Positions 21,001-48,000 of a DNA stretch of 64,000 bases are shown piece after piece (the first letter of the stretch is position 1; every line of letters begins with the position of its first letter). Below the pieces are notes generated by a model that saw only the letters and a list, made by a program, of their open reading frames with translations, was not told the DNA's origin and searched no databases. The translations under genes and the position numbers were made by a program. The stretch comes from an uncultured Planctomycetales bacterium (lineage in GTDB: Bacteria; Omnitrophota; Gorgyraeia; Gygaellales; Profunditerraquicolaceae), in assembly GCA_964545575.1 (NCBI GenBank), contig CAZJFL010000001.1, forward strand, positions 221,812-285,811, read 5' to 3'.

Positions 21001-24000
21001 ATGCTGCCGCCACAAATTCATAAAGCTCATCGTCCTTGGCAAATTTTTTACCTCTGATTACATTTAAGTTGGCGATAAGTGACTCCAGCTCCTCTGAAAG
21101 CTTATAGCGCAACGCAAACGGGTTCCGCGCCATAAAAGGACGGTCTTCGTTGGCCCTGAACCTCCCCATCACCCAAGACGGATTATCATCTTCATGCTTA
21201 GGGACAACCCGATTCATCTGCTGAAGCGCCTGCGCAGTAAATCCATCCTTATCTATACGCGAAAGTATTTCTCGGATTTTACCTTCCTCTACTTGCATGT
21301 TTTCGGCCACTGCCTTTATATGCGCCTGCGCAGACGGCTGCCGCTTACGCCGTGCGTGTGCACTCTCCCGCCTTATGCGTAATCCTAAAACCGTGCCTAC
21401 TGTGGCCAGCGCGCCGAGGCCAAGAATCAATTCCTGCGTCGCGCTTAAATCTATGCCGCAATATAAAACCAGCGTCACCAACCCCAAGCCCAACAGCCCC
21501 CTGCCGCTGCCGGGCAGCCGGCTCCGGATTTCGGCTAGCACATCTTTTGCTTCAGACGCCTCGCCCTCGCCGCGGGAATTGCCGTTGTCGCGGGAGATGG
21601 GATAAGGCTTATTTCCGTTATCGTTAGACACATTATTCTTTATTAGGTCATGTAAATACCAAAATAAATTAAAAGCGGCATCCGCAAAGAAAAGATACGC
21701 CACCAGAGGCATACTTTTAATTAAAGTGGCTACGCCTAAGGCGGCTGGCAATAGAATTGTGGCTAATCTCATTAAAGTTATCGAAAGCGCTTTCTCTTCA
21801 GCGAAAATAAAAATTGGCAATGCTCCGGGCCCTTTGGGTGGCCTTCGATTATTAAGAAGCCATAGGATAATAGTAATAGCTATGCTTAAGCCTGATAGCG
21901 AACTCATAAATAAATAATTTTTATCCGTAATTCCTATAAGATAACGCGCTACAATAGGCGGCAAGGCTATTCCCGACAGAATAATTAATGGAATTATAAA
22001 GGCGTACTTATGCCTGCTTATAAAGTTCTTGAGCCTTGAGGCAAGAGAAGGCGTAAGCGCTGCCTTCTCCTGCTTAGTGAGCGAGATTTGGCTTTGCGAT
22101 GAGAAGATTTCTGGCTTTCTCTCGGATGAACTCGGCTGCCTCGTTGCTGACTTCAACCCAGTTGCCAGCGCTCGTCCTGCCGCAGACTTTGCCGTCGGGC
22201 AGAATGAAGAAGTCATACTCATAGGACCAGTGGTCGTATTTGGCAGACGCCCATAACCCGCCTTTAATAGGAGTGACTCTACAAACCTCAAGATTCTGGA
22301 AGTTACACATCGGACACCTCCTTTTGTTTGTCTTGCGGCTAATAATTCTCTATCACTCTTAAGCAGCGCCTGATGGTCGGCGAAACTGTGGATATAGAAT
22401 ACTGCCGTGGCTATCAGCGGCAGAAAAGCCGACGCTTTATCTATACTGCCCAATATGTAGGCTGCCGCAAGAGATACTATCGACATGATAAAACTCACCA
22501 GCGGCCCGGCGCGTAAAGATTTCCTTGCCAGTAAATGTCCGAATTCATGGATGCCCCAGCCAACCAGTGAAATAATCAAGGAGGCCACAACGGAAAATGC
22601 CAGCCAGACCTGCCAGAGAGCGGCATATTTATTTCCCGGGCCAAGGCAGATAAAGAGCGTGCCGATTACCGCCCCCGCCAGCCACCCGCCCAAGAGGTAT
22701 TTCCAGTTCAGCTGCGGCTTAAGCGCCTCGTCCTCGCCGCGGTAGGCGGTATATTTATCCGCTACAGCAGAAAGGTATTCTGCAACATGCGCACCTACCG
22801 GATACCGCCCGCTTACTTCTATGGGCCATTTTACGGTCAAAAGGAACGCACAATCTTTAGTAGGACTGTAATTGCGTACGGTATAATAATTCCCCTGCCC
22901 CTTAAAGATAATCAAATCTGCCTGCTGCCAAGCGCGGAAAAATTCCGGAGAAATACGCGCTAAATCAGTGCCTAAGGCAATAGTGCCGGTGCCAATAATT
23001 TTTAAGCCAGCAAAATCCCGGCCAAAAATTTTCCGGATGCCTTCATCTGCCAACAGCCCTGCCAAATCTTCTCTTGTCGCATCATTAGAAGCGGGAAGCG
23101 ATTTCCCTGCAAAAGTTACCTTATGGCCAAGATTAAGCAGCTCGTTTATCAACGCTAAATCAAAAACGTCTTCGCCTACGTTATCGACTACGTACACAAT
23201 ATTCATCTGCTCGCGGAGCAATCTTTCTTTTAATTTTTCCGTATCATTCTTTTTCCAAAAATCAGCCGCGGCAAAATCACTTTCTATAATTTTCTCTACT
23301 AAAGAGAAGCCATCGGAAAGGAGCGCTTCGCGTATACGCGGCTCTGATAAATCTAAAATATTTCCGATTACGCACAAACGTAATGCCGCTTCCAAACGAT
23401 CTGGCGCCTTATTAATCAAAGTTAGCGCCTTGCCTAAAAGTGAGAATGCGGCAGTACGGATACCTTGTTTATACTGCCAGTCGGGATCAGCGAATTCCAC
23501 GGCAATGCGTATAATCTCTAAATCTACCTCTAAGACTTCATAGCTGGTCCAATCTTTTATCCGCGGCATTGCTAAGAATGTTTTGATGGCAGAGGCAAAT
23601 TTCTCCCTTACCTTTTCGTCAGGAACCGCCCTTTCCAAAAGCCTAAGATCGGTTTCACGACGCCGGTTGATTAAGTTAGTGGCAGAATCGCTACCTGCGA
23701 GCATATCTCTTATAAATGTACTGCCGTAATGATATTCGCTTGTCGGATGAGCTATCGCATTTAGCACATAGAGCTTGCTGCGGTCAAAGTATCTAATGAC
23801 ATTTTCTACGAACTCTTCAGGGCTAATTTTTCCCGCTAAAAAGCTCCTTCTCAATAATAGCGCGCTATCTTCAAAATCTTCCCGCAACAGGGCATTAACA
23901 TCTACCGGTGTCAGTAATAAAATGGCTTTGGATACCACCCAGCGCAAAGGATCAAGGTTTAACGCTGCTATATCAATACCATATTGGGCGCAAATACTAG

Positions 24001-27000
24001 ACACCCTCCGCGAAAGCTGGGCGTGTTCAGAATTATCTATATTGATAGTCCTGCTAAAATTATCCAGAACTGCCATGCGATTTTCTCCATCCGGCAGGAA
24101 TTGCAAACATTCTCTGGCGATATCATCTTCGTGTTCTTCCAGTAAATAGAAATAAAGGTTGCGGATTCCTTCCTCCGTATCCCTGATCGCCTCGCCATTA
24201 TCATCGCTTAGGCCTTTAACGATGTGGCTGATGAGCTCATGATACAGGATTTCGATTTGTTTGGCTTCGGGAAGGCTAAAGAAATACGGATGGAAATATA
24301 CGGTCTTGGAGGCAATATTGCATACGGCGACGTGGACTTTGTCGCCTACAGTAAAGTAAGGTTCGAAGTTAGTGACAATCAGCTGCCAGTCAGATAACTC
24401 CGGCGGCGCGCGGCCAAAAAACTGCTCCAGCAATTCTAAGGCCTTCCTCATCATATCTTCATCCCGGCTTCCTAATCTGGAGCCTTTAAGCGATGGAACG
24501 CGGAAACCTTCTCCCCGCGCCGCATACCAGAGATTAGGACGGAAGTTACGCTGCCGTTCTAGAAAATCCCGGGGCACTTCTAGCGGATGGGCGTTGGGTT
24601 CATCGGCATCCTTTACTTCTTTATTAATGACTACCCCTGAATCTTTCGTTACTGTACCAACTACGCCCCCGACTTTTCTTGCCAAAACAACCTGACCACC
24701 CTGCGCTGCTAAATCCTCGGCAGCCTCTGTTATATTTCTTCTTGCCACTCTTAAGTCTTTTGCGTTCCTGGTATAGCGCATTACCTGGCCCTCTTCATCG
24801 ATGGACTGGCCTGTTTCATCTACCATATCTTCTAAATCATCAATGGCATTACGCAACGCCTCTTTATCATGTGCCACTGCCAACAGGTATTGCGCCAGGC
24901 TTAAGCCTTTAATCCTGGCGATAGATGCAGAAATCCAGGGAGCGCTCAAGCCCACAGACTGCCTGTCACCCTCTACTAACTCTAATCTGACGTAACCACA
25001 CTGATATTGGCGCAGCCTGGCGAAACTTGCGCTCAAGCTGGCAAGGGAATTTATGAATTCCTGCTTTTCTTTGTCCCCGTAAGTATCAAGATCCAAAGCC
25101 GCTAGACCGCAGGCAGCCAGATGTATTCTCTTTAACACAGCCTTTTCTGCGTCAGAAAGGCGCTCATAAATCCCAAAAAGCTGTCTTCTATATTCCATCT
25201 TGTAGCAGGAAGCATCATTAGCTGCTCCGCCCCGCGCTCTAAATTCACCTTCGCTATAGATAAGACAACGCTGCATATCCATATTTCCGTAATGCTGGGG
25301 TTTATTCTCATCATTATCCTCGAGCAGTTGCGCAGTGGCATTACTGACGCCTAATTTGCTCAGCCGCCTATTTAACTCATCCCTGTAGCGAGAAACCTGC
25401 ACCCTAGAAAGATTCCCCTGATAATACAGGGTGAGCCGGTCGATATCGCAACCTACCATCCATAAGCCCAGATTAAACGAGCAAAGCATCGAGCTTATCT
25501 CGCTGATCCTCGCCCCGGTCTCGCTTTCTAATTTCTGCATAAAATCTTTTAAGGCAGCTATGATCGCCTCTGTGCCTTCGGGAAATCCGTATTCGCTCTG
25601 CGCTACTACATCACCGTTATCTACCGACCCGCCGTTGTCGCGGGAGCCGTTGTTAGAATCACTATCCCGGCGTTCTAACGAAGCGATGTAATCTAGCTTT
25701 CTCTGTATCTTGCCTGCCAAAGATGGCTGGAGCCTTACTACTTCTACCCAGTCCGCCCTGGTCTCGCTAAATTTTCCTAAGATAGCATGGGCATTACCGC
25801 GATTATAAAGTGCCTCAATATCTTCAGGATCTATTTTAAGTGCTGAGCTAAACCAATTGACGGCTTCACTAAACTCGCGCGCTTGCGCATAGATAATCCC
25901 GGTATTCACATGGGCATCGAGATTCTGCTGGTCCAATGCAATCGTCTGGGAATAATCGGAAAGGGCTTCCTTGGTATAGCCATTATCTAAATAGCTTAGC
26001 CCCCGGTTAAAGTATACGTTTGGATTTTGTGGATCAAACCCTAAAGCCCGGTTAAAGCAATTTAAGGCATTCTTAAAATCTCCTGCCTTAGAATATCTGA
26101 CACCCATTTTATCTAACACAGTGCAAATTAGGCCATCTTTATCCATTAACCTGATACGCCGATGCATATCTGTGACTCTGCCTAAATTAGAAAGATACTG
26201 ACTGCCAGACTCAGCCTTAAACTCATCTTCTAAGACAAAAATATGGCTTACTTTATGATATGCTAAATCTACCAACGCCTTCATATTGTTAGCAAGATTA
26301 AGTAATATGGCTACATGCGAAACCCGCTTGCCCCATATGTTTACGGTAATACTGATGGGGATTACCGTTAAGCCGACCGCTTTTGCGATGACAAAGAAAA
26401 GCTGGGTGAACCCTACGCAATCAGCCTTCCTCTGCTCAACTATATCTTCAAGATCAAACGCGCTTGCTTCTTCCATATCGGATTCTATTGCGGGATTAAG
26501 GGTATCGAAAATCTTTGCTGCGACCTTCACTTCCGCGCGAACTTTCCTTTCTTCGTTGCCACTTTGCCTTACATCCTCAAGCAAACCTTTAAGCTCCAAA
26601 ATATCTATCCCTAAGCTATCTAAAAACTCTCCTATGCTCTCGGATACCCTCTGGGGATTATCTATGTAACTTAACTCCTCAAGCTGAGCACGAAGTAATT
26701 TTTGCGCTCTGACCCTTGCTGTATCATCTAAAGAGCCGCCGTTGTCCACCGAGCCGGCGCTATCGCGGGCAGAACATGCCAATAAGGCTGCTCCCACCAA
26801 TGCCGCATCTACCATTTCTTTTACTTTTGGAATCTCATCGGCTAATATCACAACAAAATCATAGCTTTTATCTGTAAGTTCTTTTTGCAGTGCGGGCAAG
26901 GCATACCGGCGCGCCGGCTTACTTAACAGCCACCCTCCCAAAATAAATATGCTTGTTCCTTTCACGTCCTGCCAGAACTGAGCTTCTAAGCGAGGCTCTT

Positions 27001-30000
27001 TGACTACTCCTTTTCTGGGTTCTCCCTGCACGCCTCCTTCATAAGCCATAATCATAGTCCTTGCAATGGCTTCTCCCGCTTTTTGATAATAACCCCGTGC
27101 TATATCTCTTGCTTCCAAGTCTTCGCTTTCCGTCAACTCAGATATAAATTCTCCGGTTAACGCCTCAGCGCCAAATTTATGGAATAAATATTCGTTCTTC
27201 TTTGCTTGATATTCAAATCCTTTACCAGTTGCCAAATCTTCCGGTAGTAAGCATCCCGGGATTACCCTACCGCCTTCGCCTTTTTCTAAGATTATATCGA
27301 AGAACTGTTGCGGGCCCGAGATAGGTATTATTTGGCCATTCCTGATAATAAAAGCTCCTGCGCCAAAGCCGCTACCCGGAATAAATCCGGAAATTTTTGC
27401 GCCTTCCTTAACTACTTTTCCTATTTGTGTAAGGCTCTCTTTATAGACTAAAAGGCAATGCGCCATAGCTAAAACATGCGCCACTCCATCATTATTAACT
27501 ACCGCACGCCATTCAGAATTTGTTATCCTAGATAATTTTTTGGATAACTCCTGCGCTAATGTAAAATTCTCCAAGTCCGGCACATTAGGACTCGTTCCAT
27601 GGTAAGGCACGCCTTCTTCCAGCCAAGCCCCGGGGGCAGATACGCCTATTGTTTTTATCAAAGGGTAATTGTATCTCTCTCTAATCTCTGAAAGGCCGGC
27701 CCGTAAAATCGTCACGATTTCTTCTAAGGTAGCTTCTATATCAGGGACTTCTTTTCCCCCTACAGTTTTTGTGGGGCTCTTTATAATTTTCGGGTCAAAA
27801 AGAAGCTCGGGAACGCCGATAATTCTTCCGTTAATTATTGACGCTTTTACAAATGCTACCCTTGCGTGAGTTCCTCCTATATCAATTACAGGGATTATTT
27901 TTGTTGCGATATCCGCCAATGTTGTAAACTCGATATTTAATCTATGTTCAGTATAATCTAAGATGGCCTCGCTTTCCCGGATATCTTCCCACCCCAATTT
28001 AAATATTCTTCTTTCTCCCAATGCCTCAAAAAACTTCTGGCTTACGATAATATATAATTTTGCTGCATCGCCAATGGGGGCGCCGATCCAATACCTAGCA
28101 ACGCGGCTGCCTTTCTTATAAATAAAACCGAGGATGTGCGAGCCAGCTAAAGTCTTACTGTAACATTCTAGGGTATTAAATTCTTCTCCGGCATCATTGC
28201 TATTTCCTGTGGCTTCATATTCGAGCGATGTTTTATCCCCGTCATCCATAAGGGTAAATGTAAAGTGCGCTTCTATAGCTGGACTAAATTTTTTGTTTCT
28301 GAAGTGGCCAACGTATTCAAAAGACACCGCACCCTCACTCTTTATCGCCACATCTTTACCATCTTCAGAATCCCAATTGCTACCCAAAGGAATAAAACGG
28401 TATCCGTCATATCTGCTATGCCTACGCATAATCTCTTCTTGATGATCTTTGTCTATCGGGTTTCTCTTCCCCTCCGCGCCGAAGGCGGTATCGCAGGAAC
28501 CGCCGTTGTCCACCGAGCCGCCGGTATCGCGGGAGGACCCCGTCCTTAAATAGGCCTTATTTACATCCTGCACCCAGATAATATCGGCTTCCTTATTTAT
28601 AAATCCACGGAGATCCTGAAACTGGAATTGCTCCGAGGTAAATTCATTTATGACTTCGTCCACAGTTTTTCCTCTGGCTAATTCTTTGGCTAATTTGCGC
28701 TCAAGCCTGACCTTAGAATCCTCAAAGGTTATGGCTATCTTCAGGTCCAATAATTCTGTGATTCTCCGGTCTTCGGCTAATTTAAAAGTTCCGGAAATAA
28801 TAAATACATCTAGGTCCATAGCTATACTTCTACCTTCCATCTCAAAAGGACTTCTTTGATTAACTTTTATTAAAAGGTCCCTTATAATAGCTAAAAATGT
28901 TCTGTATTGGGGATCCTGAGGACCTATAAAAGCATCGAAGACTTCGGAACCTATATTTACGGATACCGCCTTGATACCGGCGGCATTCAAAGAAGAATCT
29001 AAATGGTCTGTTAATGTCTTTTTGCCGGAACACGGAAGACCGAATATTCCGATGATTAAAGGCCTCTTTGTGAGCTTCGGTATTAAATCCAATAACATCG
29101 CGATGAAATGCTCATCCTGCTGATCTTCGGACCCACCGTTGTCCACGGCGCCGCCGTTGTCCACCGAGCCGGCGTTGCCGCGGGTCATGAATAATTCTAA
29201 TCTCAAATCATATTTCCAAACCGCCTCTTTCATAACCCCGAAGAATTTAAAGGCAGCCTTAAATATGCCTCTTAAGTCAGTAGGATTCTTCAGGAAAACA
29301 GACAGTTGCGGATTAGCAAATAAAAGATACATTGGCTTACCAGTAGCTATCTTTAATTCAGGAATCTCTGTGGCGGGTTCAGCAAATCTTATCACTGCAG
29401 GATTACCATATCTGGGATTAAACTGTATTGTAATCTTGCCTTTCTCATTCCTTATAATATGGTATGCGTAGCCCCTGCGTGACTCTATTTCGCTTGAATC
29501 AGTCAAGACCTCGGGAGATTCAGTAATGCCTTCTTTGCCTCCGACCTCGCGGCAAATCCAGTTAGCTATCACCAAAGGCGCGTTGCCTCTATTGATTACA
29601 CGATGGGAATAATTAGGATTGATCATTACCTTTTCCCCCTGCTTGGCAAAGGTAATGATGGCTTCAAACCGGCAGGTTTCCGGGTTAATTCCCTGCTGAA
29701 TGTAAATAGCCTCACCATACCAGACCTCACATACCTCAGGATAGATATCTCCCTTTACAGAAATTGGATTTTGGTGCCCTCTAGTCATGATAAACTCAGG
29801 ATCCAGCTCCTTATTGATTACCCCGGGCAGCAGGACGATAAGATCAAATCTTATATTATTCTTCTTAATAGCCCCTCTATCGGATTTCAGGCCTACGTCG
29901 CGGTAGCCATAATAAACCACTCTGTCCCGCTCCTGCTTTGCTACTTGGGGCTCAGCGATGCTGTAGGCAATATCTTTAAGCGTCCGGCTCCATTTACCCT

Positions 30001-33000
30001 CAGAGGCAACCTCTTCGCCAAGTGCGATTTCGCCGGTGGCCAAATCAAGGGTTACCGGCAGGCCGGCAAAACCGGAAAGGTCAACCGCCTTGCTGGCCGA
30101 CCCGCCGTTGTCCACCGAGCCGCCTTGACCAGCTTGCAATTGCGCTCTTATTTTATCTGTTTTAAGCCCGCCCTTTAGCGGCCTTCTGGCTTGGTGACCT
30201 AAATCCGCAAAGGCACACGGCACGATCAGGCTCTCGTCTAAATCAAAGATCCTGGCTATACTAAGGCCGATTTGATATCTGCTGAGCTGTTGCGGCCCGC
30301 TGATATGATAAATGCCGGATGCGTTCTGCGCGATCAACCGCTCTATCGCATCGGCTAAACACCCCACCGCTATAGGATTGGTGTACATATCGTCAGCCAG
30401 CCTGATCTGGCGGCCCTGGCGACAAGCGCCGGAGACTTGTGCCGTAAACTTTGAGCCTAAGCCCAAGATCAGGGTCGGCCTGATAATCAAATAATTAGAG
30501 CGCGTATAGCGGATGGATTTTTCCGCATCTAATTTTATTCTACCGTACTCATTCACAGGAATAGTAACATCACTTTCTGAATAAGGCCCGTTTTCTCCGT
30601 CAAAAACATAATCTGAAGAGATGAATACAAGCTTGGCGCCGATAAATTTACTTATTTCAGAGATATTCTCTGTGCCTAATACTTGTATTTGAAATACTTC
30701 TTGGGGGTGTTCCTCGCAATAATCTATATCTACCATGGAAGCTGCGTGAATAACCACCTTAGGCCGTAATTTGGTTAATAAAGCGCGCACTGCCTTTGCA
30801 TCTCTTACGTCCAAGAAATAACCATTGTCAACTTTATTTCGATAGTATGTCCCGCTGGTCTTATAACCGGCTGCGGATAATTTACGCATCAGTTCCTTGC
30901 CAAGAAACCCTGACGCACCGATCACTAATATATCTACAGCTTTAGCCGTCTCTACCTCCTGCTTCAAGACGCCTTGAGATTCCAGGAATTCAGCAAGCAA
31001 CATAGTGCCGATAGCATAATATGCCAAAGAGTGCCTGCCGGTAGGATCCTGGCTGAGGCGGTTTACAGCATCGGCAATAAAATGCGTGGCTTCGGCAAAA
31101 AGCGCTTTGGCTAACCAGTCCGGCTCATCTTTTAAGAGTTTATTCAGCGTAGAATGATGAGCCAACAGCCCGGGCAAAGCAGCTCTGGCTTTCAGGAAAT
31201 TCGCAACTGCAGACTCGCTATCCCAGTATCCAAGCTCCATACGGAAATCCTCGTCTTCCTGCCAAATTCCTAATTCAAAGCGGTTATTGCGCACCAATTC
31301 CAATAAGATTGAATGCAGTATCTTGCCCAGCTCATAAGTAATATCTATCTGCGTAGGTATGCTGCGAGGTAAATCTACTCCGCGGATGTCTATCAGGCGT
31401 AAGGCTCCTCCTTCTGTCCTTAACACATTCCTTAATAATAAATCTCCGTGGGCGTAACGCGGGATAAAGCCCGGTTTTAATTTCTCTAATAACCCCGGCT
31501 GGGATTTCAAAAGAGCAAGCAGACGGGGTAAATTCGGATATTTTCTGCCATTGATATAAATATTTCTTGCCGCGAATAAATCCTCAAATAAATACGAAAT
31601 ATCCCTGTATCGATTGTTTTGTATCGTAATTGCCCTGTCTTTTATCAGGCGGCTGTAGGTAGCGGTTGTCCTATCGGTAAAGAGGCCCAGGCGGTAATCC
31701 ATCCTCTTTAGATGAATCCTATCTACGTAATCTTGGGGAACTTCTAACCTGCCTTGAGAATAAACAAAATCGCAAAGTAAATCTAGAAGACCGGATATCG
31801 TCTCTAAAAACTCTTCTGCCGCGGTAGGCGGATGATTAAGAAAATAGAAAGGTAAAGGTTCTGCATTCTCGATATATTGAGATGTGTAAAATACATAGCC
31901 CTCGCCTTCAACATAATCATAAACTTCAGGAATCAAAACTTCCGCCTCAGTAGGTAAAGTTTCTTTTAATTCCTTCAATCTCTTGTATTGGGCTTTTAGC
32001 CACGCTACACCATTGGCGCCGATGCCTTCCCAGTCAGAATATTTTAATATTACTATTCTACCCTCGCCATCTCTTACCAGGAAGGTCGTGGCTGAACTTC
32101 CGCCGTTTCTGATAACGTCTAAAATTTCGTAATGCTGCGTAACCTCCGGAGGCAGGCGCTCAGATAAAGCGTTTCTATTTCTAAACCCGTGGTAGACGCT
32201 TCCACCGTTATCCACCGAGCCAGTGTTGTCCACTGAGCCGTCTGAAATAACCGGCTTTTCATTTCTCGCAGGCGCAAATATCGCTCTTAATCTCTCGATG
32301 GCCTCCTGAGGGCTTAATCCCTGATTATTATGCAAAACATACGTTCCGGATATAAAGATACCGGCGCCTTTTTTGATCGCCTCAATGATCGTTTCCCCAT
32401 TAATGCCACCCTGAACCATAACCGGCTTAAAGAACTCCCTTGCCCGTAGCTGGTCAATCTTAGCTAAAGCTTCTAACTCAGTAGTACCGCCTATCTTGGC
32501 AGTAGGTATTGCGGAAACTACTATGCGGTCAACTTCGGATAATATTTCTTCCGGAACCGCGCTTATCTGCTCATCCGGCTCAATCACTACGCCTGCTTTT
32601 ATGCCGAGGGATTTCAGGTAGCGAATTCTCCTTAAAAGCCTTGCCTTATCTCTTCCAAAGGCGTCAAACTGCAAGTTGATGCTTCTGACTATACCTGTTA
32701 CCGCAAATGCCCTCAGGTACTTCTTAGATGGCTGCCAAGATAAGAGATGCACATCAAAAGGAAAATCCACACCTGCCAAGCTCATCTTCTCGATTAACTG
32801 CGGATTAAATTGGGCGGTGTTATCGGGATATTCGGTATTAGCATTTTCTCTGCCGGTGCGCTCAAAATAGGCGTTGGAGCGGACATCAAAATGTATCCCA
32901 TCTGCACCTGCCTCCTGGAGTATAAGGGCGGCACCAATTAAAACCTCATCGCTTACTTTACCCAATACTGATAGTGGCACATAAATTTTATAATTTGACT

Positions 33001-36000
33001 GGCCGTAAGCATCGGTGACAACGGTTAAATCCGGCCGCACTGTTATTGTCTGCAGATAATGTATAAAGGAAGGAGTATTTATCCTCCAGAATACCTCCGC
33101 CACCCTATCAATAGGCGAATGCCGGGCATCGCGCGGCAGGCGGCGCAAAATGCCCACCGAGGGCTTAGCCAACATCAGGATCTTTAAATCAAAATACCGG
33201 CTATATTTTCTGGTCAAAAGGTAATTCCCTTCAATGATGACCACAGTGGAGCGGTCAATGGTAATTTTTTCTTTGTGCGTTAATCCACCTCCCTCATATT
33301 TATCATAAAGCTCAGTTAAATCCAGGGTTAGGCTTTCTTCTCTGCCAGCGTTAAATTGCCTTATTTTTCCCAGTGCTTCTTTTTCAAACTTCTCTGCCCT
33401 TAGCGAAATCTCGTTATCATTAAGGCTAAATCCCGTTGCCCCTATCCTGCTTAATTCCGCGTCTTGCCGGGCATATCTATTTTGGCGACTGTCAATAAAC
33501 CAGTCGCGGCTGATCACCACGGCTTTGCCGCCCGCTCTCCTGATTAATTCTGCAGCCTTTTCTGCGGCGGTGGTTTTAAAAGCCCCGGAGTTGCCGTCAA
33601 TGGCAACCACTAAAGCTCTTCCTTCTGGCTTTCTTGATAAAGCCGCGGTTATCGCGTTCACAATTCTGGCGATGTAATCAACCGGGCTGGTGACCACAGC
33701 ACTCAAACTGCTCACGCGCTGCTCATACTCTGCATCAAACCTATCTTGCTGCGCCTGGTAATTCTGCATGCAGTTTTTCTGATAAAAGCCCAGCGTCACC
33801 CACCCAATCGCCTCTTCAAAGAACTGCTGTAGTTGCGGGCCGGAATTCTCGTTGTCCAGCTCGATGTTTACGCCCCATTGCGCCTGTAAGCTTTGCTTCT
33901 TCAGTTTGGCTAAGAATGCACGGCACTTGGGGTCATCGATATTACCCAAAAATTCCTCTACTCCTTTTGCAGCCTTCAGTAGGACCCAGATATTGGCTAA
34001 TCTCTGCATCATCGTCAGTTCCCCAAAAGTATATTCCTCTCCCGGAACCGGAATATCGCGAATATACTTCCTGACAACTACAAAAGTCTCAAAGGCGCTT
34101 AACAGGCCGTCCTGAATCTGCTGGTGCTTCCAGTGCTGGCCATCCGGCTCCAGGACACAGGCGGTATCTAACCTAAGCAGTCTGCGGATCTCTTTTGCCC
34201 AATAGCGGCTGCAACCCAAGAACTGGGTATCTGAACCATAAACTAAAAGGTCAGCGTAAGTCTTATTGTAATCGGCAGCCAGGATTAAAAGACAGGCATA
34301 AACACAAGCAGCATTCTGCCTGACTTCCTCATAGGTAATACCTTTAAGCTCAGCCATTCTTCTAAGGAGCAAGTCAAATTTTCCCTGATTTAAACCGCCG
34401 CTTCTATAGGCATAACCGTAATCTAAGGTACCGCCCTGAAAACCGGCCCTGTATTCTTCGCCGGAAGAAGCAGCAGTTCTTAAGCTGGCTAATATTTCGC
34501 TCACGCCCTTGCCTTGGGAGCGCTTAGCCTTAAAATAAGGCACGAAGCCGCTGAGCACCGTATCTTTACTTACCCAGACGCCCGGCTCATCGGCAAAATT
34601 GACGCCCATGCGGTTTCCGGCAATGGCAATGCCGACATTAAACATAGCTACCAGCTGGCCGATTTCTTCTTTTGCGGGCAAGACTACTTCTATCACCGAG
34701 AAACCGCTCTGACGCAATCTCTCAATTCTGGCCTGATAGCGATTATCTTGGGGCCCTAGTTTAAAATGCACAAAGAAATTCCGCTGGGGCTTATAGTAAG
34801 CCGGCTCTAAATCTTCTTCCTCGCTTAAAATAACTGGGATAACACCTCTCCTGGTTCCCTGGGAATCTTTTTTACCTAAGGACTCGGCAGTAATCTGGCC
34901 AAAGAAAGTAGATAAAGCCTTTAATTCCTCGGGCAACACATAAGTAATATGGGTTTTGCCGTGCGTTTCCATAAAGGCAATGAGCAAGCCAAAGAATAAT
35001 CCGGGGTTAATGACAGTGTTGTCTTCGCCTAATATCTTGGGATTTTGGCAGATAGACATCATCTTTGCTCCGGATTCTGTTACTGCTTCTAACAGCCAAT
35101 CGCCTGCAAAAGCTGCAGGGACCAGGCCTGGCTCGGCAAAGAATGAAGCATAGCGGCCGCCTGTGGCTTGGTCATGGTCAATGACAGTGCGATAACATCT
35201 TTCCGGCTTTTCTGTGGTGCGCAAGACATCTTTGGCATCGCCGTCTTTCTCTTTAGGATCAGCCACAGCCACGAAGTGGCTGCCGGTTTTTGCTTTGTCG
35301 CCGCCGTAGAGATCCAGTAATTTCTGATAAAAATAATCTTTCAGTTTGGTGATCTCTACAGTCGTCCAGGACTTACTGATCACAAAGAAAACCGTATGCT
35401 CAAGGTCAAGCTTCTCTTCTAATTCCCGAATGACCTGCGGCTCAACCGAACCTAAGATATAAATATTTTGCAGGCCAAAGATGCCTTTTAAAGCCACCAT
35501 CCCATTACCGGAACCGCCAATACCTAAAATTACTCCTGTGGTCAGACCGCCTGCTTTTAATTCAGCGGAGAGCTTTGTTAATTCAGGGATCCTTGCTCCC
35601 TGGATACGGCTTAAGATATCCACCCAGCCTAAACGACTCTTATTGTCTATCCAGTCCTTCGTTACTGTATCCCACCAGGTAAGTTTTCCGGAGAATAACT
35701 TGGGAACCAAGCCTTCTCTTTCTGCCTGCGTTACATAATCTCTTAGGTCAACGCTCTCTTTATCGGATAAACGCAGTTTAACCTCTAAAAGCGTAGAGAC
35801 TACTGCGCTTAATCCGCCGTTATCATGGCTACTGGCTAAAGCTGTCCCTTCAGCTAATCTTTGTAATTGAGCGGCACAAGATGAGCAGAAACCTGCTGCA
35901 GTGCGGTCCAATTCATCTGCGCTATGGCTTAAATGCATTACGCAAGAAGGAACATTGCAATGCAGGCGTAATTCGGTAGGAATAATGAATAAGCCACCGA

Positions 36001-39000
36001 TAAGATGCCCTACTTCGTGAATAGCATTTTTGAGGTTACGGCTAATGAAGGTATCTCTATCGGGATGCTGGAACCTGTATGCAGAATTGATAATGATATT
36101 TTTGGAGGGGTTGGTGCGGCCAAAAAGATAATTATATGCCTTACCGTCTTTACACAGGCCGGTAATATCTGCTTCGGTAATAACAAGAGTGGGGATTTTC
36201 TGTCTGGCGCCTTTAAAGAAATAAGGAAGTACAAATTGCTTGCGCTTTGCATCATAATAACCACCGATATTACTGACGATATCTTCAAATTTTACAGGAG
36301 AATCAATTATGACGTTTATATTGAAGGGGAATGCCTCGGTTATTCCTTTGGCAATCAACTGGGCTAATTCTATAACGGTATCGTGCCCTTGTTCTGTCGC
36401 GAAAGCAGGAATAATCTTTAAGAAAGGCGGAGCGCGGGAGGAATAAGGCAACCTCTCTACAGAAGCCATAATACCGCTTTCATCTCTTGGCGCTACGCCG
36501 CTTGGCTCCAGAGGCACATCCGCAAATAAGCCACCGTTGTCGCAAGAGCCGCCGTTATCAAAGGCACCTTCTAAATTAAACCCGCGCGTAAACCTGCGGA
36601 TAGATTCTTTGATCCTATCGATTACGTATTGCTGGGGATCTTTTACTCCGGATTCCCTGGCCTGAGCGTAAAGCTCCTGGCGCGCGGCTCTCACTCTCTC
36701 ATTATTCTGCACATAACGTCCGCAGCCTAAAACAACCTCCCGAAGCTGCGCTTCTCTTAAGCTGGCGATATCCTCAACCCCGGGGAACCATTTCCTCCAT
36801 CTTTCTGTTCCGCATAAAGCCTCTTCTACGATAGCTAAAAATCCACCTTTACCTGTTAGTTGTTCCAACTCCTCTAAGGCCAAGTATTCTTGGCGGGAAA
36901 ACTCCGGCCCTACATTTGCACAGGCTATCCCTGCCCCGGGCACCAGCGCCAGTTGCTCTTCTTGCATATAGTCAGAATTATGCTGTTTAAGATGTAACCC
37001 GTACCTAGCTGCCAAGTTAAAAAGCCTGACTACGCCCTCGGTATGGAATGTACCGAGCTGGTGGGAATCCAACACCTGGGTACCGGTATCAATAACCAGG
37101 TAAACTATGTTCGCCCAAACATAGTCCAACCCTTTCTCATCCAGTTTCTCCCGCAATAACCTTATATACTCTCCTACTGCATCCGGAGAATCCAGGACAC
37201 TGCCGGAGATGTCAGAACCGACCTCGTAAACAACCGGCGGCATATTCTGCTCTAACCGGTAAGCCTCACAGTCAGAGATTAAATCAACGGCCCTTTCCAC
37301 CATCTCGCCGATACTTACCAACGAGCCTTTCTTCTCGTAATCTAAAGTTACGTCTATATGGAGAATATCAAAGCCGGCATCTAAATCAGCGCGGTAGGTG
37401 CGCTTAGCATTTGCCATAGCTTGGCCTAAAGATAATAATTTATCTTGAGGCCTCTGCCAAGGGCCACCGTGGTCTCGCTCAATGAATACGCGCCCGCTAT
37501 AACCTACCTCAGAGGCGATTCTGCGGATTATAGTTACCAACTCTGCCTGGTTCCACCCCGTATATGAGCCTTCCACGTCAACCTGCCTTGGAGTAGCGAT
37601 AAATATAGGAATACAACCGTCTTCTTTTGCGACTTCAAGATAAGCCCTGATAATATCTTCGGACATCGGACAGACAGCAAGCAGCGTCATTTTCTTGCCC
37701 CTCTTGGCTTCCTGGCTTTTTACCTGTGCCCACATCCTAACAGATGCGCTCAACTGCGCATATTTGTCTAAAAATTCATTGACCAATATTACACTACGGA
37801 TATAAAATGCTTTTGCCCTTCTCTGGTCATGAATCCGCGTTAAAACATACCCGGCGAAATTTAAAGCGCAAATCAATTGCATTCTAAGCTGCCAATAGGG
37901 CTCGGTCTGGGAAAGATATGCTTTTACGCCTGACTTTGCTAAAATATCCTGGAACCTCTCCTCTAGCGCCTCGAACGCTTCCCATAGATAGCTCTCCTTG
38001 GCAAAGGAGAAATCAACGACGGTATTATCGCCTTGACGTATAGCTAAAGTATAAAGGCCTTTCTCCAATAGATAAAATTTACCGAATATGCCTTCTGCCA
38101 GCTTGCTTAAGTCATAGACTAAATCTCCCCGCTCATCCCCTCTGGGGTCAACAAATAAGAACTTGCTTCCTTCGGTCAGAATATTATGTAAACCCAGGTC
38201 GCCGTGATTAATACACAATGATAATGGATTAAGCAAAAGGAATAACTCCGGATTATCCTCCCATTCTCTTAATATGCGGGGAAGATTCCTGTACTTAGTG
38301 CCATTTATAATTAAATATTCGGACTGTAATAGAGATTGAAGATACGGCGCCCGCCTTAAGGCTTCTTCCAACCTGCTTCCCACCTTATCTAAGGTTATCC
38401 CCTTGAGATAACCGGCAGGGGCTTTAGCCTTGCTATCCGATACAATATCTCTCATATATGCGCTTAAGACATCCTGGATAATGCCACATGTTTCTTCCAT
38501 TGCCAGAGAGCCTTGCGCTATTCTATCGGCTAAGCTCTTAGCCTGCGAGTAATAAGGCATCTCATAATAAACATTCCCCTGCTCCAAGGAATAACTTAAC
38601 ACCCGCGGGAAATACCCTTGGAGCCTATCAGGTAGGTCCAAAATCCATCTTATCTCTCTTATCAAATCCTCTTCTGCGAATTCATACGCCTCTTTGCGAA
38701 CTATATATTTACCCTCTCTGTTTATAAGTAAAACTCTAGAGCAGGATTTACGCTCTATCACTCTTGCTATCTCTTTACGGGATACCCGGCGGGATGGGCC
38801 TACATAAGCAGAGCCGAATCTTTGAATTTCGGCTACTTTTTGTTTAAGGTCAGGGGCTTTTGAAAATATGCTTCTGGCGTTGAAAGAATCCGCCCCTGCC
38901 TCTACGACTCTTTTATAAGTATCTTCGGTAATGCCTCCGTCTATTTCTATGCTTACCCGGATATTCCTTTGCTGTATTAATCTTTTTAAGCTGCGTATCT

Positions 39001-42000
39001 TCTCTGTCATCCCGGGAATAAATGTGCGCCCTCCGCCTCCGGGCACAACGCACATAATCATTACCGTCATCATTCTGGCATCGAAATACCGCCAGAGGCT
39101 ATCTAAAGCAGAAATCGGGGTTTCCGGATTAAGAGAAACGCCCAGATATAAATCTCTCTGTTTGATATAATCGATCATTGCTTCCGCCTCGCCCAAAGAA
39201 GAAAAAGCCTCATAAGGCAATATAACTTTGTCTCTTCCGGGCTTTAACCCGGCGTTTATTAATCTATCTATCAAAGCTTTATCCGGATTTACTGCCCAAA
39301 GGTGCACATCCAGCGGCAACCCTATGCTGGATATTATCCTGATATCATCTGCGCAGTCCAAGATATCGCCTTGAGTCAACTTCCCGTCAAAATGGTCTAC
39401 GTGCACAGAATCCATGCCACACTCTTTAACCTGCTCAATTTCCTTTCTTAAACCGCTCTTATCCGCGTAGAGTATAGAATATGCCAGTGACAGGGAGCCG
39501 CCCTTACCGAGAAGCTTGACTGAAGCCCGCTTGATCTTATAGGCCTGGTAAGCTTTAGCAAAGTTATGGACCTTGGCCTGCCAGGGGTCTTTGCGGACGA
39601 TATCCGTAGTATCCAAGAAATCACCGGCAATAAGGAGGCTGAGCACTTCGTCTTTATCTAGTAAGGGGTTGATATCTTTGACAAATCTTTCAAAGGCAGC
39701 CTCGTCCGGCTGCAGTTGGGATATAGAATAAAGGGCGCTATGAAGCCTTATTACTTCTATCAAAACATCCCTGCTTGATAAATCTTTAGCTAATTCTGGG
39801 TTTTCTCTGAGCATTGCCGTTGATGCTCCGGCATGGTTTGGATACAGCTCGAGCATTAGTCCCTCTTCGGCAACTATCTGCGGCTTGATTCTGGACTTTC
39901 CGATATCATGCAGCAGGATGAAGAATTCGAAGAATAACCTGTTCCGCGGGTTAAATAATATGCTACGGTATTCCTGAGGTATGGATTGAAGGGCAGTGGC
40001 GGTATTTAGAGTATCGAGCATAACCCGGAGGTGGTCTATAAGTCTGGGCCCTTCGGTGTGTAATGGCAAAGGTAAATTAGGTATATCAAAACAATTATGG
40101 TATTCTTGAGACAAGCGGGTACAAATAAGAGCTCCTATATCGGTAGAACCACTCCTTACCTCTTCGCTGAAAGCAATGTCAAAGGCACCGCCGTTGTCCA
40201 CCGAGCCACCAATGAGTCCATCCAAATATTTATCCCATTTTGAAAAATCTATTCTTTCATACTGCCGCATCTTCCCGAAGAATAAGGTGGCTATCCTCTT
40301 AAGCGCTTCTTCGCTATAGCCCTCTGCGCGGCAGATTATCTTTGGTTCGGTTCCCGAGGCCCGCGCCAATGCCCAGCCATCGCTAAAAACAATCCTTAGG
40401 CCGTCGGTCTCATCGATATTATAATCTAATCTGCGGAAATACTCTTTGACCTCGCTGATAATGCGCTTCTTTTCTTCATTGGCATTATCGCCGGTCACGG
40501 TAAGACGAAACTCTCTGGTAGAAGGATAATGCGGTATTTCGTAAGCCGCAGCCTGGACGGTTGTGCCCTCTTTCCTTACCTTAGCCACAAAGCGCAATAA
40601 CTTAGCTGCGGTATAAATGCCGTCATCAATATTATGATTATCCGCAAAGAAGAAGTGGCCGGACTGCTCTCCGCCCATAATCGCGTTAACCTCTCCCATC
40701 TTCCTCTTAATATGGGAGAACCCTGTTTTCCATCTGATGGGCTTGCCACCGGCGTCTTTTACCACTTTTACTACCGCTTCCGTGCATTTGGCATCAAAAA
40801 CAACCGCCCTGCCGGGATTCTCTGCTAAGATGTCCCGGCTTAACATTGCTAAAATAATATCTCCGGAAACATCCTGCGCCATATTATCCACCACTACCAA
40901 CCTGTCAGCATCCCCGTCAAAAGCTAGGCCGATATCTTCTCCGCCTTCTCTTACCGCGTTAATCAGGCACTGCATATTTTCGGCTAATGTAGGATCGGGA
41001 GAATTATTTACACAATTCGGGAAATTGCCGTCGGCTACCCCGTTTATCAATCGCACTTGAGCGCCCAAAGCGGAAAATATTTTTGCTAAAGGCAGGGTGG
41101 CGGCGACGCCATTTAAAACATCAATCACGATTTTTAACCCGCTTAAATTCCCTGCTGCCTGAGATAATAAATCCGCATAGGCAGAAACCATATCTTTTTC
41201 TTCTATCTGGCCTGTGCCAGAGATAAAGCATCCGCTTTCTGCGATTTCGCGGATTCTCTTTAATTGCTCCCTACTGGTATTGACTATGCCTATGGTCGGT
41301 TTAAATCCGCCGTAATGGGCGGGATTATGACTTGAAGTAACCATAATGCCGGCATCAGCATTGTATAAAGGGACGGAATAAGAGAGCATCCCTGTAGAAA
41401 CAGTACCTAAATCAATGACTTTGACTCCGCTGGCTACTAATGCCTTAACCGTATCCTGATGTATTCTGGGTGAAGTAAGGCGGACATCATGCCCTACTGT
41501 TATCACTAATTTTCTCTTATTTAAAGCAGCAGCAGTAAAAGTAGCGAATGCTCTGGCTATGCGCGCGACCACATCCGTAGTCAATGTCTCCTCGGCATGG
41601 GCAGCGCGGATATCATTTTCCACAAAGATTCCGGCATCGACAGGCGCATATCCTAAATCTACCCATTGGCCGTCCGAACTCTCTATATTAGCCAATACTT
41701 GCTCTACTATACCTAAATACTCCTCTGCTGCCTTAGGCCCCTTATCCTTGGCGTTGATGAATAATCTGGAAGGTTTCTCCTCAGCAATATCCGGTCCGAC
41801 ATTAACCGTTGAATCCACCGCTAAAGCAGCTTCGCGGTCATTGCCTTGCGTATCAAACGAATCTCCGAAGAAGATAAAAGATTCTCTGCTTAGACCCAAA
41901 ATCTCTTCCGCTTTCCTAACCGCAAAGCCCTTATGTATTCCCGCCGGCAATATGTCAATAGCAGTCATCCCGGCAATTCTAATTTCCACCTCTATGCCTT

Positions 42001-45000: not shown

Positions 45001-48000
45001 AACGCAGTTCGGCCTCGGAAATATAAAGAAATACTATAATTCTACTTAAAATTTTATGAATACGGTGTCTTTCCCCATCTAGAGGTAATACCCCGGAAGG
45101 TCCAGGCCTAAAGCCTGTCTGTCCTTTTAATATCTGGCCAGTCAGTTCTGTATATTTCTGCAGTAGTCTTTGATAAACAACTTCCAGTAATGCTTTAGTT
45201 TCAAGTGAAATATCATGCCTGCTTAGAACGGTAGCATATGCCGGAGGAGAAAGTCTTTCTAAATCGGTAAGAATACTTTCATAAGTTTCGTAATCCATAC
45301 TGTTACTATCAATAATTGTAACTAGTCTCTTTTGAGCAATTTCTTCTATGGAGCCGCCGTTACCTACGGATTCCTCCTCAGAATGTTTGCTAAGATTAAA
45401 TTTAGATAAAACCTCTATGCCGGTATTAAAGGATAATTCTGTATAGCGAACAACCTGTAACTCATCCGCACTTAATAAACCAAAAGGCTGCTGATACCGG
45501 GCGATGATTTCTTTTAACCTTGCCAATTCTTCGATACTGAATGGCTGAGCAAAATAACCGGCAACAATGTGAGGTGGGTATTTACCCGGTATCGCCCACT
45601 GCTGTCTGCGGTTAGAAATTGGATCTTTTCCATCTGCAGCGATAATAGACTTGATCTCCCAAAAGATTCCTATATCTATATCCCAATTAACCCCGCCTAC
45701 TTCGATATCAAAAACAGGAGTTATAATTTCTTTCCCGCTAGAAACACGATCTTTCGGAATATAACCTTGTATAGTAAGATGCAATTTATCCGGATCAACT
45801 AACAGAATCTTTCTACCAAACTCCCGGGACAATTCTTCCTGAAGTTCTACCATCTTCTTTCTTGTCAAGCCATCAGGAACCATATACACTTCGCTCAAGG
45901 CAGAAGTGTTATCGCGCTCTTCTTCTGGCTTAATATTCCCCGCTGCATCAATAAAACGCCGCGAGCGGGTTAAATCGGCTTCTTGAATTTCTTTTAGAAG
46001 GCCGCAAACCACAGCTCCTTTTCCCTCAGGGCCTGTATCATACGAACCGCCGTTGTCTACGGAGCCGCGGGAAATGATTTCTTCTTGCAATAAGAAATCT
46101 TTTACCTTCATTGGATCAAGGCCGCCCAAAGTCTCAATCGCAGATTCTCCGACTACCGCCTTGAGGTTCTTTTTGGCTACACCTACCAATTCCAAGATTT
46201 TAACCATATCTTCGGAAAAGCCCATCTCTCTCAAAGCCACTATTTCTTCATTTGTGGCATAGACAAATCTCTCCCACTTTCCTGCTTCCGACCTTTCGTG
46301 ATAAAGACGTATATCGTGTTCTGCCCAGCTTAAAAGCCAAAGAGCTAACTGTCCAGCATCGGTATTAAGATTAATCCCATGCTGGATGCAGAATTCCGGG
46401 TTCTCAAGTAAAAATTTAACATAGCGGTTCCGGTAGATAAATTTGCTACGGTAGGCAAAAACACCCGGCCTGATTTCTGTTCTAATTAAGTCACTACGAC
46501 TTAGCTCCTTCGGCTGGCCCTGAGGATCTTCCAATACCGGCATAAGCAGTGTAGCGTAAGACTCATAAACTTTGGTTTCCACCTCTATCTTCGTATAACG
46601 CACATTGCCATTACCTTTTATAAGTACGCTATAGATTTTACCGTCCGAACCAACATATTGAGGCCTACCTTCGCTATCCAATACGGAATCAGGCATCAAT
46701 TTAATCTGGCGCGGAGCTTTCTGGTCAAATCCGTATTTTGTTAGCTTACGTTCTCTAATATAATCGTCTATGGCCTTGCTGTATTTTGTCTCATTTATCA
46801 GAAGATCGGTAACTATATCTGACAGACGTAAACTAGAATGCTGTTTTAGGACTTGCTCAATAGCCTTGATATAATCCGAGAAACTATAATTATTGCTTTC
46901 TTCGGTATTTACGTTATTGAAAAACCAAATCTTTCTATGCGCCTTGCTTCTTTGCACCACCTCTGCCACGCCCGGAGTACCAAACTGAGGAAGTATGCTG
47001 GAATATGTGCTTCCTGGCCCGATAATAATGAGAGAAATTTTTTCGTGGGCAAGCCACATGGCTAATTCCGGGTTCATGCCAGGTATAGGGGCATTCGGCT
47101 CTAATTCGCTCTTTACTACCCGAAAGTCAACCAGTTTGTTTTCGCGTAATTGATCCATAAACTTCTGGCCGTATACTCCTATTTTACGGCGTTCGTCGGC
47201 AGGGCGCTTATCGGTGGGGTCAGGTATTAAACAGGCATCTATATCACTGCCGACTTTCTCCCTAAAGGATTCAATTGTTTTTTTGTCGATAGGCCTTTCA
47301 TAAATTGCTTCCACGGTGGCAGATTCTAAGGCAACAGGCACAACGTGGAAACGCATATCTACTCCCCAGGCCCTTTCTAACATATGCATCGCTACTTTTG
47401 CCTGGTCTGCATCTGTGCTGCCGCTATTTTTAACGATATATTTTGAATCAATGCAGGCGCCTAATTCATGGAAGAGAGCCAAGATATTGAGGTTGCGGAT
47501 ACTCTTGCCATGGAAGAAATCAATTCTTTCCTCTACCGGCTTATTTTTATTTCTCTTATCGAACTGCGTATAATAAGCTTTGGCTCTGCTTGAGTAAGCC
47601 CGAGAGTAAGCAGTAAATTCATAGTCGATAATCCTGGCCATATTCAGTTGTTCAATAAGAAAAGGTATAAATTCTTTTTCTCTGATCAAACCTCCTATCT
47701 TATTCATAACTACATGTATTACTGTTTCTTCCATAGTGGGATAATCCTTACCCGGAGTTTCACCGGTTTTTTTATCTTTTTTATCCAAAGCGCTAAAGTT
47801 AGAATATATCTTACGGCACATAAATTCATCGGGCAAGAACCCGTCGCATACCGCAGCAGCTTCGTCGCCTAAACCGATAGTCCTGCCTTTGCCGGGACGA
47901 AGCTCTAATTCCTGCACTCCTGTCCTTCCGCCGTTATCGGTAATGGACTGGCTTAATACCACCGCGCATCCCGAATCAAGCAATGCCGGCATATTCACGG

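Follow-up and report, generated by a model that had tools for sequence, protein, structure and literature searches.

A short DNA-level repeat, probably marking module joints, in a giant multi-enzyme reading frame of an uncultured Omnitrophota bacterium

The stretch of DNA analysed here (the window, 64,000 nucleotides of contig CAZJFL010000001.1, assembly GCA_964545575.1) comes from an uncultured bacterium of the Omnitrophota and carries eleven sites of a short repeated sequence, called connector in the following, which probably marks the joints of a giant multi-enzyme fusion protein. From position 2 to 64000 the minus strand is a single stop-free reading frame of 21,333 codons that is open at both ends, with 0 stops in minus frame 0 compared to 712-1637 in each of the other five frames. 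Since this open reading frame (ORF) continues beyond the window on both sides, the actual gene must exceed 64 kb, and the window represents a fragment of one giant gene. The stop-free state of minus frame 0 throughout the window also explains why the ORF list shows just short antisense ORFs. The GC skew of the plus strand is negative over the entire window, which fits one long minus-strand gene. Pfam domains were found in the order ROK kinase, NUDIX, CofD, HAD/PMM, four-domain phosphoglucomutase (PGM), ribulose-phosphate 3-epimerase (RPE), GatZ-like aldolase, archaemetzincin-like M54 peptidase, PGI, PRK-like kinase, second RPE, RmlD, cupin-type GPI, P-loop kinase, TPR, ARMT1-like phosphatase, Fic, enolase and pyruvate-phosphate dikinase (PPDK). 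They belong to unrelated enzymes, for the most part of sugar-phosphate metabolism, and none of them dominates. In addition, 39 transmembrane (TM)-like hydrophobic segments (19 amino acids (aa) with a mean Kyte-Doolittle hydropathy of at least 1.9) were counted in a crude hydropathy scan, which is not a topology predictor. The window ORF is predicted to encode part of a giant multi-enzyme membrane protein with multiple passes, the latter taken from this crude scan.

Apart from the connector, the window has no real dispersed DNA repeat. The core of the connector, the 20-mer CCGCCGTTGTCCACCGAGCC (plus strand), is the reverse complement of GGC TCG GTG GAC AAC GGC GG, coding for G-S-V-D-N-G-G, and occurs in five exact copies at 26736, 28500, 29151, 30102 and 40188, with three more copies at 29133, 32202 and 46047 that have at most 3 mismatches, while the chance expectation is 0 (100 shuffles). 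Allowing up to 6 mismatches gave 14 matches at ten sites, all in one codon phase and on one strand; the single phase follows from the one stop-free frame together with the same encoded peptide. The eleventh, degenerate site at 21581 (21579) encodes a related S-R-D-N-G unit and has an exact 16-mer in common with 25631-25646. The eleven sites listed in the original prediction, which was made from the letters of the sequence, were all recovered within 1-4 nucleotides of the positions given there, and its claim of one codon phase holds for all copies. Its description of the 20-mers as near-identical is appropriate for most of them, but not for those it placed at 45351, 36529, 25628 and 21581, because they have 4-8 mismatches (4 at 25629, 5 at 36531, 6 at 45354 and 8 at 21579). 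Every site consists of one to three tandem 18-nucleotide units encoding the hexapeptide G-S-x-D-N-G (the Tandem Repeats Finder reports a period of 18 at connector g), and within the arrays the central unit is best kept, whereas the outer units are degenerate (SRDTG, SARDSA, GSCDTA, GAFDIA, GSYDTG). Among the unit residues Asn is found in 15/15, Asp in 14/15 and Gly-Gly in 13/15 units. The peptide DNGG occurs 13 times in the protein compared to 0.24 expected occurrences and was the sole recurrent peptide of that scan. All copies are located between aa 5977 and 14142, i.e., in a 24.5-kb stretch, and none was found in the other approximately 13,000 residues. The individual sites are as follows.

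46031-46072, minus strand: connector a, aa 5977-5990, SRGSVDNGGSYDTG; 2 mismatches to the 20-mer (46047); no flanking Pfam domain, putative joint.
45350-45373, minus strand: connector b (degenerate), aa 6210-6217, ESVGNGGS; 6 mismatches; the 223-aa module between a and b has no Pfam match.
40169-40210, minus strand: connector c, aa 7931-7944, GGSVDNGGAFDIAF; exact 20-mer at 40188; between PGM/PMM (ends at aa 7905) and RPE (aa 8172).
36527-36568, minus strand: connector d (two units), aa 9145-9158, GAFDNGGSCDNGGL; between the GatZ-like domain (ends at ~aa 9118) and the M54 peptidase-like module.
35810-35827, minus strand: possible extra unit HDNGGL, aa 9392-9397, GAT AAC GGC GGA; weak, with 9 mismatches; ~11 residues past the M54 match.
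32198-32245, minus strand: connector e (two units), aa 10586-10601, SDGSVDNTGSVDNGGS; between the second RPE and the APH-like kinase module.
30098-30124, minus strand: connector f, aa 11293-11301, GGSVDNGGS; exact 20-mer; between RmlD (ends at aa 11288) and cupin-GPI (starts at aa 11305).
29129-29182, minus strand: connector g (two units), aa 11607-11624, RGNAGSVDNGGAVDNGGS; exact 20-mer at 29151 and 3 mismatches at 29133; residues 336-353 of the structural model.
28487-28537, minus strand: connector h (three units), aa 11822-11838, SSRDTGGSVDNGGSCDT; exact 20-mer at 28500; predicted coil.
26732-26773, minus strand: connector i (two units), aa 12410-12423, SARDSAGSVDNGGS; exact 20-mer at 26736; after the ROK-like module.
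25610-25648, minus strand: connector j (two units), aa 12785-12797, GSRDNGGSVDNGD; after the TPR module.
21575-21595, minus strand: connector k (degenerate), aa 14136-14142, SRDNGNS; with a cluster of TM-like segments on one side and the Fic module on the other.

The similarity of the copies at the nucleotide level clearly exceeds what the peptide needs, as had been proposed. The synonymous-codon identity is 0.61 among the 15 units and 0.72 among the 7 GSVDNGG units compared to 0.36-0.37 expected from the codon usage of the gene, and the observed values were reached in 0 of 5000 simulations. Asn is encoded by AAC in 15/15 units and Asp by GAC in 11/14 units, while these codons account for 34% and 30% of their amino acids gene-wide; Ser is always encoded by TCN and never by AGY, which makes up 43% of the Ser codons of the gene. 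The other consensus codons are likewise in the minority (TCG 9% of Ser, GTG 22% of Val), and the units have a GC content of 68% compared to 47% for the gene. The codon at the V position varies, with GTA, CGC, TGC and TTT found besides GTG. From the codon identity above expectation and the minority codons in the consensus we infer that the copies are related by DNA descent, or are held alike at the nucleotide level, rather than being independent inventions of the same peptide.

The position of the connectors relative to the enzyme modules was analysed by domain matches, by free-standing homologues and by a structural model. Pfam matches contain 0 of the 14 20-mer matches with up to 6 mismatches, and the degenerate copy at 21581 is also outside. 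An exhaustive phmmer search of aa 11290-12489 against 1.84 billion representatives followed by blastp yielded free-standing homologues, and at four joints such homologues could be mapped end to end onto the flanking modules. These modules and the peptidase domain downstream of connector d are listed below.

35858-36142, minus strand: archaemetzincin-like Peptidase_M54 domain, aa 9287-9381; intact HEVGH (HEVGHLIGG) and Cys4 motif C-x4-C...C-x2-C.
29213-30088, minus strand: cupin-GPI-like module, aa 11305-11596; matches a whole free-standing protein of ~260 aa.
28556-29095, minus strand: P-loop (PRK/uridine-kinase-like) module, aa 11636-11815; matches the free-standing kinase P0106 (194 aa), residues 1-188.
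26807-27904, minus strand: ROK-like sugar-kinase module, aa 12033-12398; 56% identity to the free-standing P0007 in phmmer (54% in blastp).

The free-standing cupin-GPI proteins align from residue 2-3 to near their end, beginning at aa 11305-11307 of the giant protein, while connector f ends at 11301 and connector g starts at 11607. P0106 aligns between connectors g and h. The ROK-like protein P0007 (393 aa) aligns to aa 12035-12397 with its C-terminus just before connector i; the giant protein reads ...GAALLAC followed by SARDSAGSVDNGGS, whereas P0007 ends with ...GAALLCPLPK and a stop. Since the modules correspond to whole free-standing proteins and the stop of P0007 falls where the connector begins, the connector occupies the place of the stop, spacer and start of formerly separate genes. 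In an AlphaFold2 model of aa 11270-11850, calculated with an alignment of homologues, the GPI module reached a predicted local distance difference test score (pLDDT) above 90, whereas connectors f, g and h are coil with pLDDT below 50 (model residues 1-30, 336-353 and 520-581). At these three joints the connector is thus predicted to be a disordered tether linking enzyme modules that fold on their own, which agrees with the inter-domain hinge considered in the original prediction. The structural check that had been suggested therefore placed none of the three inside a fold. The earlier statement that each copy sits at a domain boundary is upheld wherever a joint could be checked and no copy lies in a Pfam match, but connectors a and b have no recognisable neighbours.

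Regarding the origin of the copies, the alignment of their flanks revealed that DNA identity ends within about 18-26 nucleotides from the core, with one best pair of 59 nucleotides at 76%. The modules next to the copies are unrelated enzymes, the flanks are unique, and internal paralogues of the protein are only 21-28% identical. A block of RPE and APH-like kinase is present twice (aa 8223-8754 and aa 10408-11016, ~23% identity); the joint between epimerase and kinase carries connector e (two units, 2 mismatches) in the second block, but the corresponding joint of the first block (~aa 8376-8420) has no connector. Because only one of these two paralogous joints carries it, the connector appears to have spread separately from module duplication and to be far younger than, or independent of, the flanking modules. 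Whole-module duplication was rejected as the route of copying, given the lack of flank identity and the low similarity of the paralogues, and with it the recent modular duplication of the original prediction fell. Extended gene-conversion tracts were rejected as well, since there is no identity beyond the connector flanks; of the proposed gene conversion only a narrower form is retained, in which the connector itself was copied or homogenised as DNA. It seems that the connectors were either inserted or converted into pre-existing joints, or that all of them are continuously homogenised.

Collectively, the best explanation, which we favour with moderate confidence, is that the repeats mark where the modules of a giant multi-enzyme fusion protein are joined. 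One DNA sequence would have been copied or homogenised inside the gene after the modules had diverged, and likely routes would be short-tract ectopic gene conversion or recombination between connectors, while replication slippage of the 18-nucleotide unit would alter the unit number. The connector is probably more than a passive filler and likely read in a sequence-specific manner, most plausibly by a processing protease, which is the weakest step of the explanation. Several points weigh against this view. Identity over 20-26 nucleotides is at or below the usual length for RecA-dependent exchange, which leaves the copying mechanism unexplained. Selection on codons, for instance for certain tRNAs or for translation kinetics, could produce the same pattern as shared descent. 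In the region of the connectors, roughly half of the domain joints are devoid of one (CofD to HAD, HAD to PGM, PRK to RPE, and RPE to kinase in the first block), hence, fusion does not depend on it. No recognisable domains adjoin sites a and b. Finally, no orthologue of the gene, against which the age of the fusions or ongoing homogenisation could be measured, was found by a GTDB protein-pattern scan, in IMG/VR, by word-index protein searches or by the phmmer search. The word-index searches are weak negatives for such long multi-domain queries, because one of them missed P0007, which the exhaustive phmmer search found. Megablast against phages and plasmids gave no match to the gene, and the exact 20-mer had only single unrelated matches in genome and metagenome collections, mostly in high-GC genomes and with no protein similarity to the giant. 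A module order common to the window and Elusimicrobiota proteins was sought in order to date the joints, but BLAST returned single modules only.

Short boundary motifs of different sequence were also found in other long multi-enzyme proteins. P0025 (2143 aa, L015 3266-9697, Logan ERR7850083) is a signal-anchored fusion of sugar isomerase, transaldolase and cupin GPI, the gene of which adjoins ddl-ftsQ-ftsA. It contains eight copies of R-[GAP]-S-[MLI]-[TS]-G (R-x-S-M-T-G), with SMTG found 4 times compared to 0.015 expected, and these bracket the transaldolase (796-1144; copies at 776 and 1158) and the GPI module (1311-1605; copies at 1312 and 1615). The codons of this motif are fully randomised (identity 0.23 compared to 0.25 expected), hence, the motif appears to be kept by selection on the peptide. 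A peptide-selected boundary motif must be read by something, the classical case being a processing protease. By comparison, the DNGG connector might also have a role at the peptide level, possibly in protease processing. An internal start at the M/L/I of the P0025 motif was considered and rejected, because there is no ribosome-binding pattern. In P0018 and P0020 from Elusimicrobiota metagenome-assembled genomes, which are relatives with regard to the ROK-like module, [RK][AGS]PP is found at or near several module boundaries, and RAPP occurs 5 times in these proteins compared to 0.11 expected. The copies checked either directly follow ROK-like modules or stand where repeated M3-peptidase modules begin; several RAPP copies of P0018 belong to duplicated M3-peptidase modules and are not independent joints. 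DNGG connectors are absent from the related long proteins. The closest homologues of the GPI module, P0015 and P0011 (~50% identity), are annotated as Candidatus Omnitrophota metagenome-assembled genomes. As a separate observation, RAPP is a second recurrent peptide of the window ORF (4 times compared to 0.19 expected, with Arg encoded by CGC each time). It is found at 53084-53095, 36425-36436, 24401-24412 and 5414-5425, with RGPP at 44195-44206; one RAPP opens the M54 peptidase module, and another precedes an HExxH motif by 24 aa.

It is possible, but on balance unlikely, that the main function of the connector is cleavage and not tethering, such that the giant would be cut at or beside D-N-G-G by a site-specific protease and release the individual enzymes in fixed stoichiometry. 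This reading, which takes up the processing site named in the original prediction, is compatible with the favoured explanation of the origin of the copies. The cutting enzyme could be the M54 metalloprotease in cis, since a domain with an intact HEVGH is present in the same ORF; other candidates are an Asn/Asp-specific endopeptidase and a C39 or S8 domain at the N-terminus, which lies beyond the window. A recurrent short motif placed exactly at module boundaries, with its invariant Asn, almost invariant Asp and mostly Gly-Gly, is in line with processing, as is the peptide-only conservation of the P0025 motif, which is the signature expected of a recognition site, and the recurrence of [RK][AGS]PP in the Elusimicrobiota relatives. 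Cleavage of giants has moreover been proposed from their C39 and S8 domains (West-Roberts et al. 2023, bioRxiv 10.1101/2023.11.21.568195). However, cleavage is here a prediction from sequence, many joints have no motif, a cleavage site needs neither tandem duplication nor a variable number of units, and selection on a peptide does not explain identity at the DNA level. In addition, the double-glycine leader consensus of C39 is not matched, with Asp at -4 and coil instead of a helix, and no C39 domain lies within the window. The broader notion that such boundary peptides are the cleavage points of giant bacterial proteins, which would then be true cellular polyproteins with lineage-specific sites and co-evolving cognate proteases, is regarded as rather improbable, and so is the assignment of D-N-G-G here, R-x-S-M-T-G in P0025 and R-A-P-P in the Elusimicrobiota relatives as the sites of their lineages. 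If it were true, cutting of the giant product would yield the enzymes of sugar metabolism as a stoichiometric set.

The remaining explanations have still less in their favour. The 18-26-nucleotide direct repeats might act as crossover points for in-frame deletion, duplication, insertion or swap of modules within the gene or among giant genes of the same genome, as in the homology arms of the original prediction. The direct orientation and common phase of all copies, the five identical 20-mers built of minority codons, the confinement to one 24.5-kb stretch and the presence at only one of two paralogous joints, i.e., movement independent of modules, would agree with such active recombination sites, but no connector-flanked pair of modules is a recent duplicate, extended identity tracts are absent, the repeats are very short for homologous recombination, and the P0025 motif without DNA-level conservation indicates that recombination is not the general reason for boundary motifs; we consider this explanation to have a small chance. 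Even less probable is a signal in the nucleic acid or in translation, such as a ribosomal pause for co-translational folding, an RNA processing site or an internal initiation site. The minority codons TCG, GTG, GAC and AAC, with Asn encoded by AAC throughout, and the fact that GTG is a possible start codon could be taken for it; however, AAC and GAC are normally read faster than their synonymous partners, RNA folding around nine copies gave inconsistent results (z-scores between -2.7 and +0.85, no common structure), there is no Rfam match, the V codon is not constant, and downstream of the connector neither a Met/Val start nor a Shine-Dalgarno-like sequence is found consistently. A selfish in-frame mini-repeat similar to the Rickettsia palindromic elements, which inserts into coding sequence where it is tolerated, appears highly implausible, because the repeat comprises 18-26 nucleotides only, is not palindromic, has no consistent hairpin and always occurs on a single strand, in a single phase and with the same peptide, although a dispersed DNA-level repeat that is limited to permissive linker positions and GC-rich compared to the host gene recalls such elements; the single unrelated matches of the exact 20-mer elsewhere are consistent with chance. 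Chance or an assembly artefact as the source of the repeats can practically be dismissed, since zero chance matches are expected, every copy has unique flanks coding for different enzymes, and the repeat is far shorter than sequencing reads.

Some further features of the window ORF were noted. Besides the M54 domain, HExxH motifs are present at aa 3660, 5158 (HEFGH), 6655 and 13818 (HEFGH), and the last one, situated within a cluster of hydrophobic segments, may belong to a candidate intramembrane metalloprotease. The Fic domain contains the canonical active-site motif HPFSDGNGR (window 20954-20980, aa 14341-14349) and is a potentially active AMPylase or phosphocholine transferase. An old internal duplication with a period of ~1,080 aa extends over window ~10400-16500 (aa 15833-17871, 23-27% identity), with aa 15833-16000 resembling aa 16928-17077 and aa 16501-16790 resembling aa 17575-17871; this region has few Pfam matches and no DNGG connectors. 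Neither a Pfam match nor, in the searches covering them, a homologue was obtained for the connector-bounded modules aa 11839-12030 (27911-28486) and aa 5991-6209 (45374-46030), which may represent new domains.

The giant ORFs of Omnitrophota, the longest with 147,155 aa, were discovered only recently and are poorly understood, and the papers on them ask whether the product is one working chain or is cut. The boundary motif provides testable candidate cut points for giant bacterial proteins and marks natural split points for structure prediction. That other long multi-enzyme proteins have boundary motifs of their own suggests a general design rule and not a curiosity of one gene. Connectors alike at the DNA level amid unrelated flanks point to an undescribed way of building or maintaining such genes, which could be short-tract homogenisation or connector-mediated in-frame recombination.

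Giant proteins of Omnitrophota have been described as Archaeovorins, often with C39 domains, and their cleavage points were stated as unknown, which blocked structure-based analysis (West-Roberts et al. 2023, bioRxiv 10.1101/2023.11.21.568195); a multi-enzyme metabolic cluster class of giant proteins was also reported from this phylum (Nielsen & Lui 2026, bioRxiv 10.64898/2026.06.07.730766). The window gene probably belongs to this known, recently described giant-protein class, since it shares with its members an ORF length above 20,000 aa, numerous TM-like segments and tiled unrelated enzymes including PGM/PMM, ROK kinase, GPI, NUDIX, HAD, TPR and PPDK. The N-terminal C39/S8 peptidase and SecA-like domains of these giants were not found within the window, beyond which the N-terminus of the ORF is located. 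Whereas the window ORF has a boundary motif, a linker, spacer or cleavage motif is mentioned neither by West-Roberts et al. 2023 nor by Nielsen & Lui 2026. Neither the boundary connector repeated at the DNA level nor the parallel, different boundary motifs of other long multi-enzyme proteins have been described in the literature searched.

The comparison with better-known elements supports the original statement that the motif belongs to no described family. The connector had no match in Pfam up to E ≤10, RTX and Ca-binding families included, and none among PDB sequences; protein-database searches with the connectors, also in concatenated form, gave nothing significant, and a literature search for the string GSVDNG returned only two unrelated vaccine papers. 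RTX and Ca-binding arrays (GGxGxDxUx) have a period of 9, while the connector has a period of 6 (GSxDNG). Rickettsia palindromic elements are longer (~100-150 bp) and have hairpin potential, in contrast to the 18-nucleotide unit with a shared core of at most 26 nucleotides and no consistent fold. Inter-domain linkers, such as the Gly/Ser or Pro/Thr linkers of cellulases, the Ala/Pro linkers of E2 and those of polyketide synthases and nonribosomal peptide synthetases, are conserved in composition and not in exact sequence. Similar to them the connector is located between independently folding modules, has a high content of Gly, Ser, Asp and Asn and is predicted to be disordered at the three joints modelled, but its exact hexapeptide and codons recur. 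With C39 double-glycine sites the connector shares Gly-Gly in 13/15 units directly before a small residue. C39 leaders form a helix with hydrophobic residues at -4, -7 and -12, whereas the connector has Asp at -4, Gly at -7 and is predicted as coil, with no C39 domain in the window. Viral polyproteins (picornavirus 3C and potyvirus NIa sites) resemble the present case in having a short peptide at the boundaries of functional units and a protease in cis; the connector differs from such sites by its tandem repetition and conservation as DNA, by its presence at only about half of the joints and by the hypothetical nature of the cleavage. Compared to the other long proteins, the sequence of the boundary motif differs between the window ORF, P0025 and P0018/P0020, and P0025 has no conservation at synonymous sites; as in the window ORF, however, P0025 has a short motif at its module boundaries, and its homologous GPI module is bracketed in the same way.

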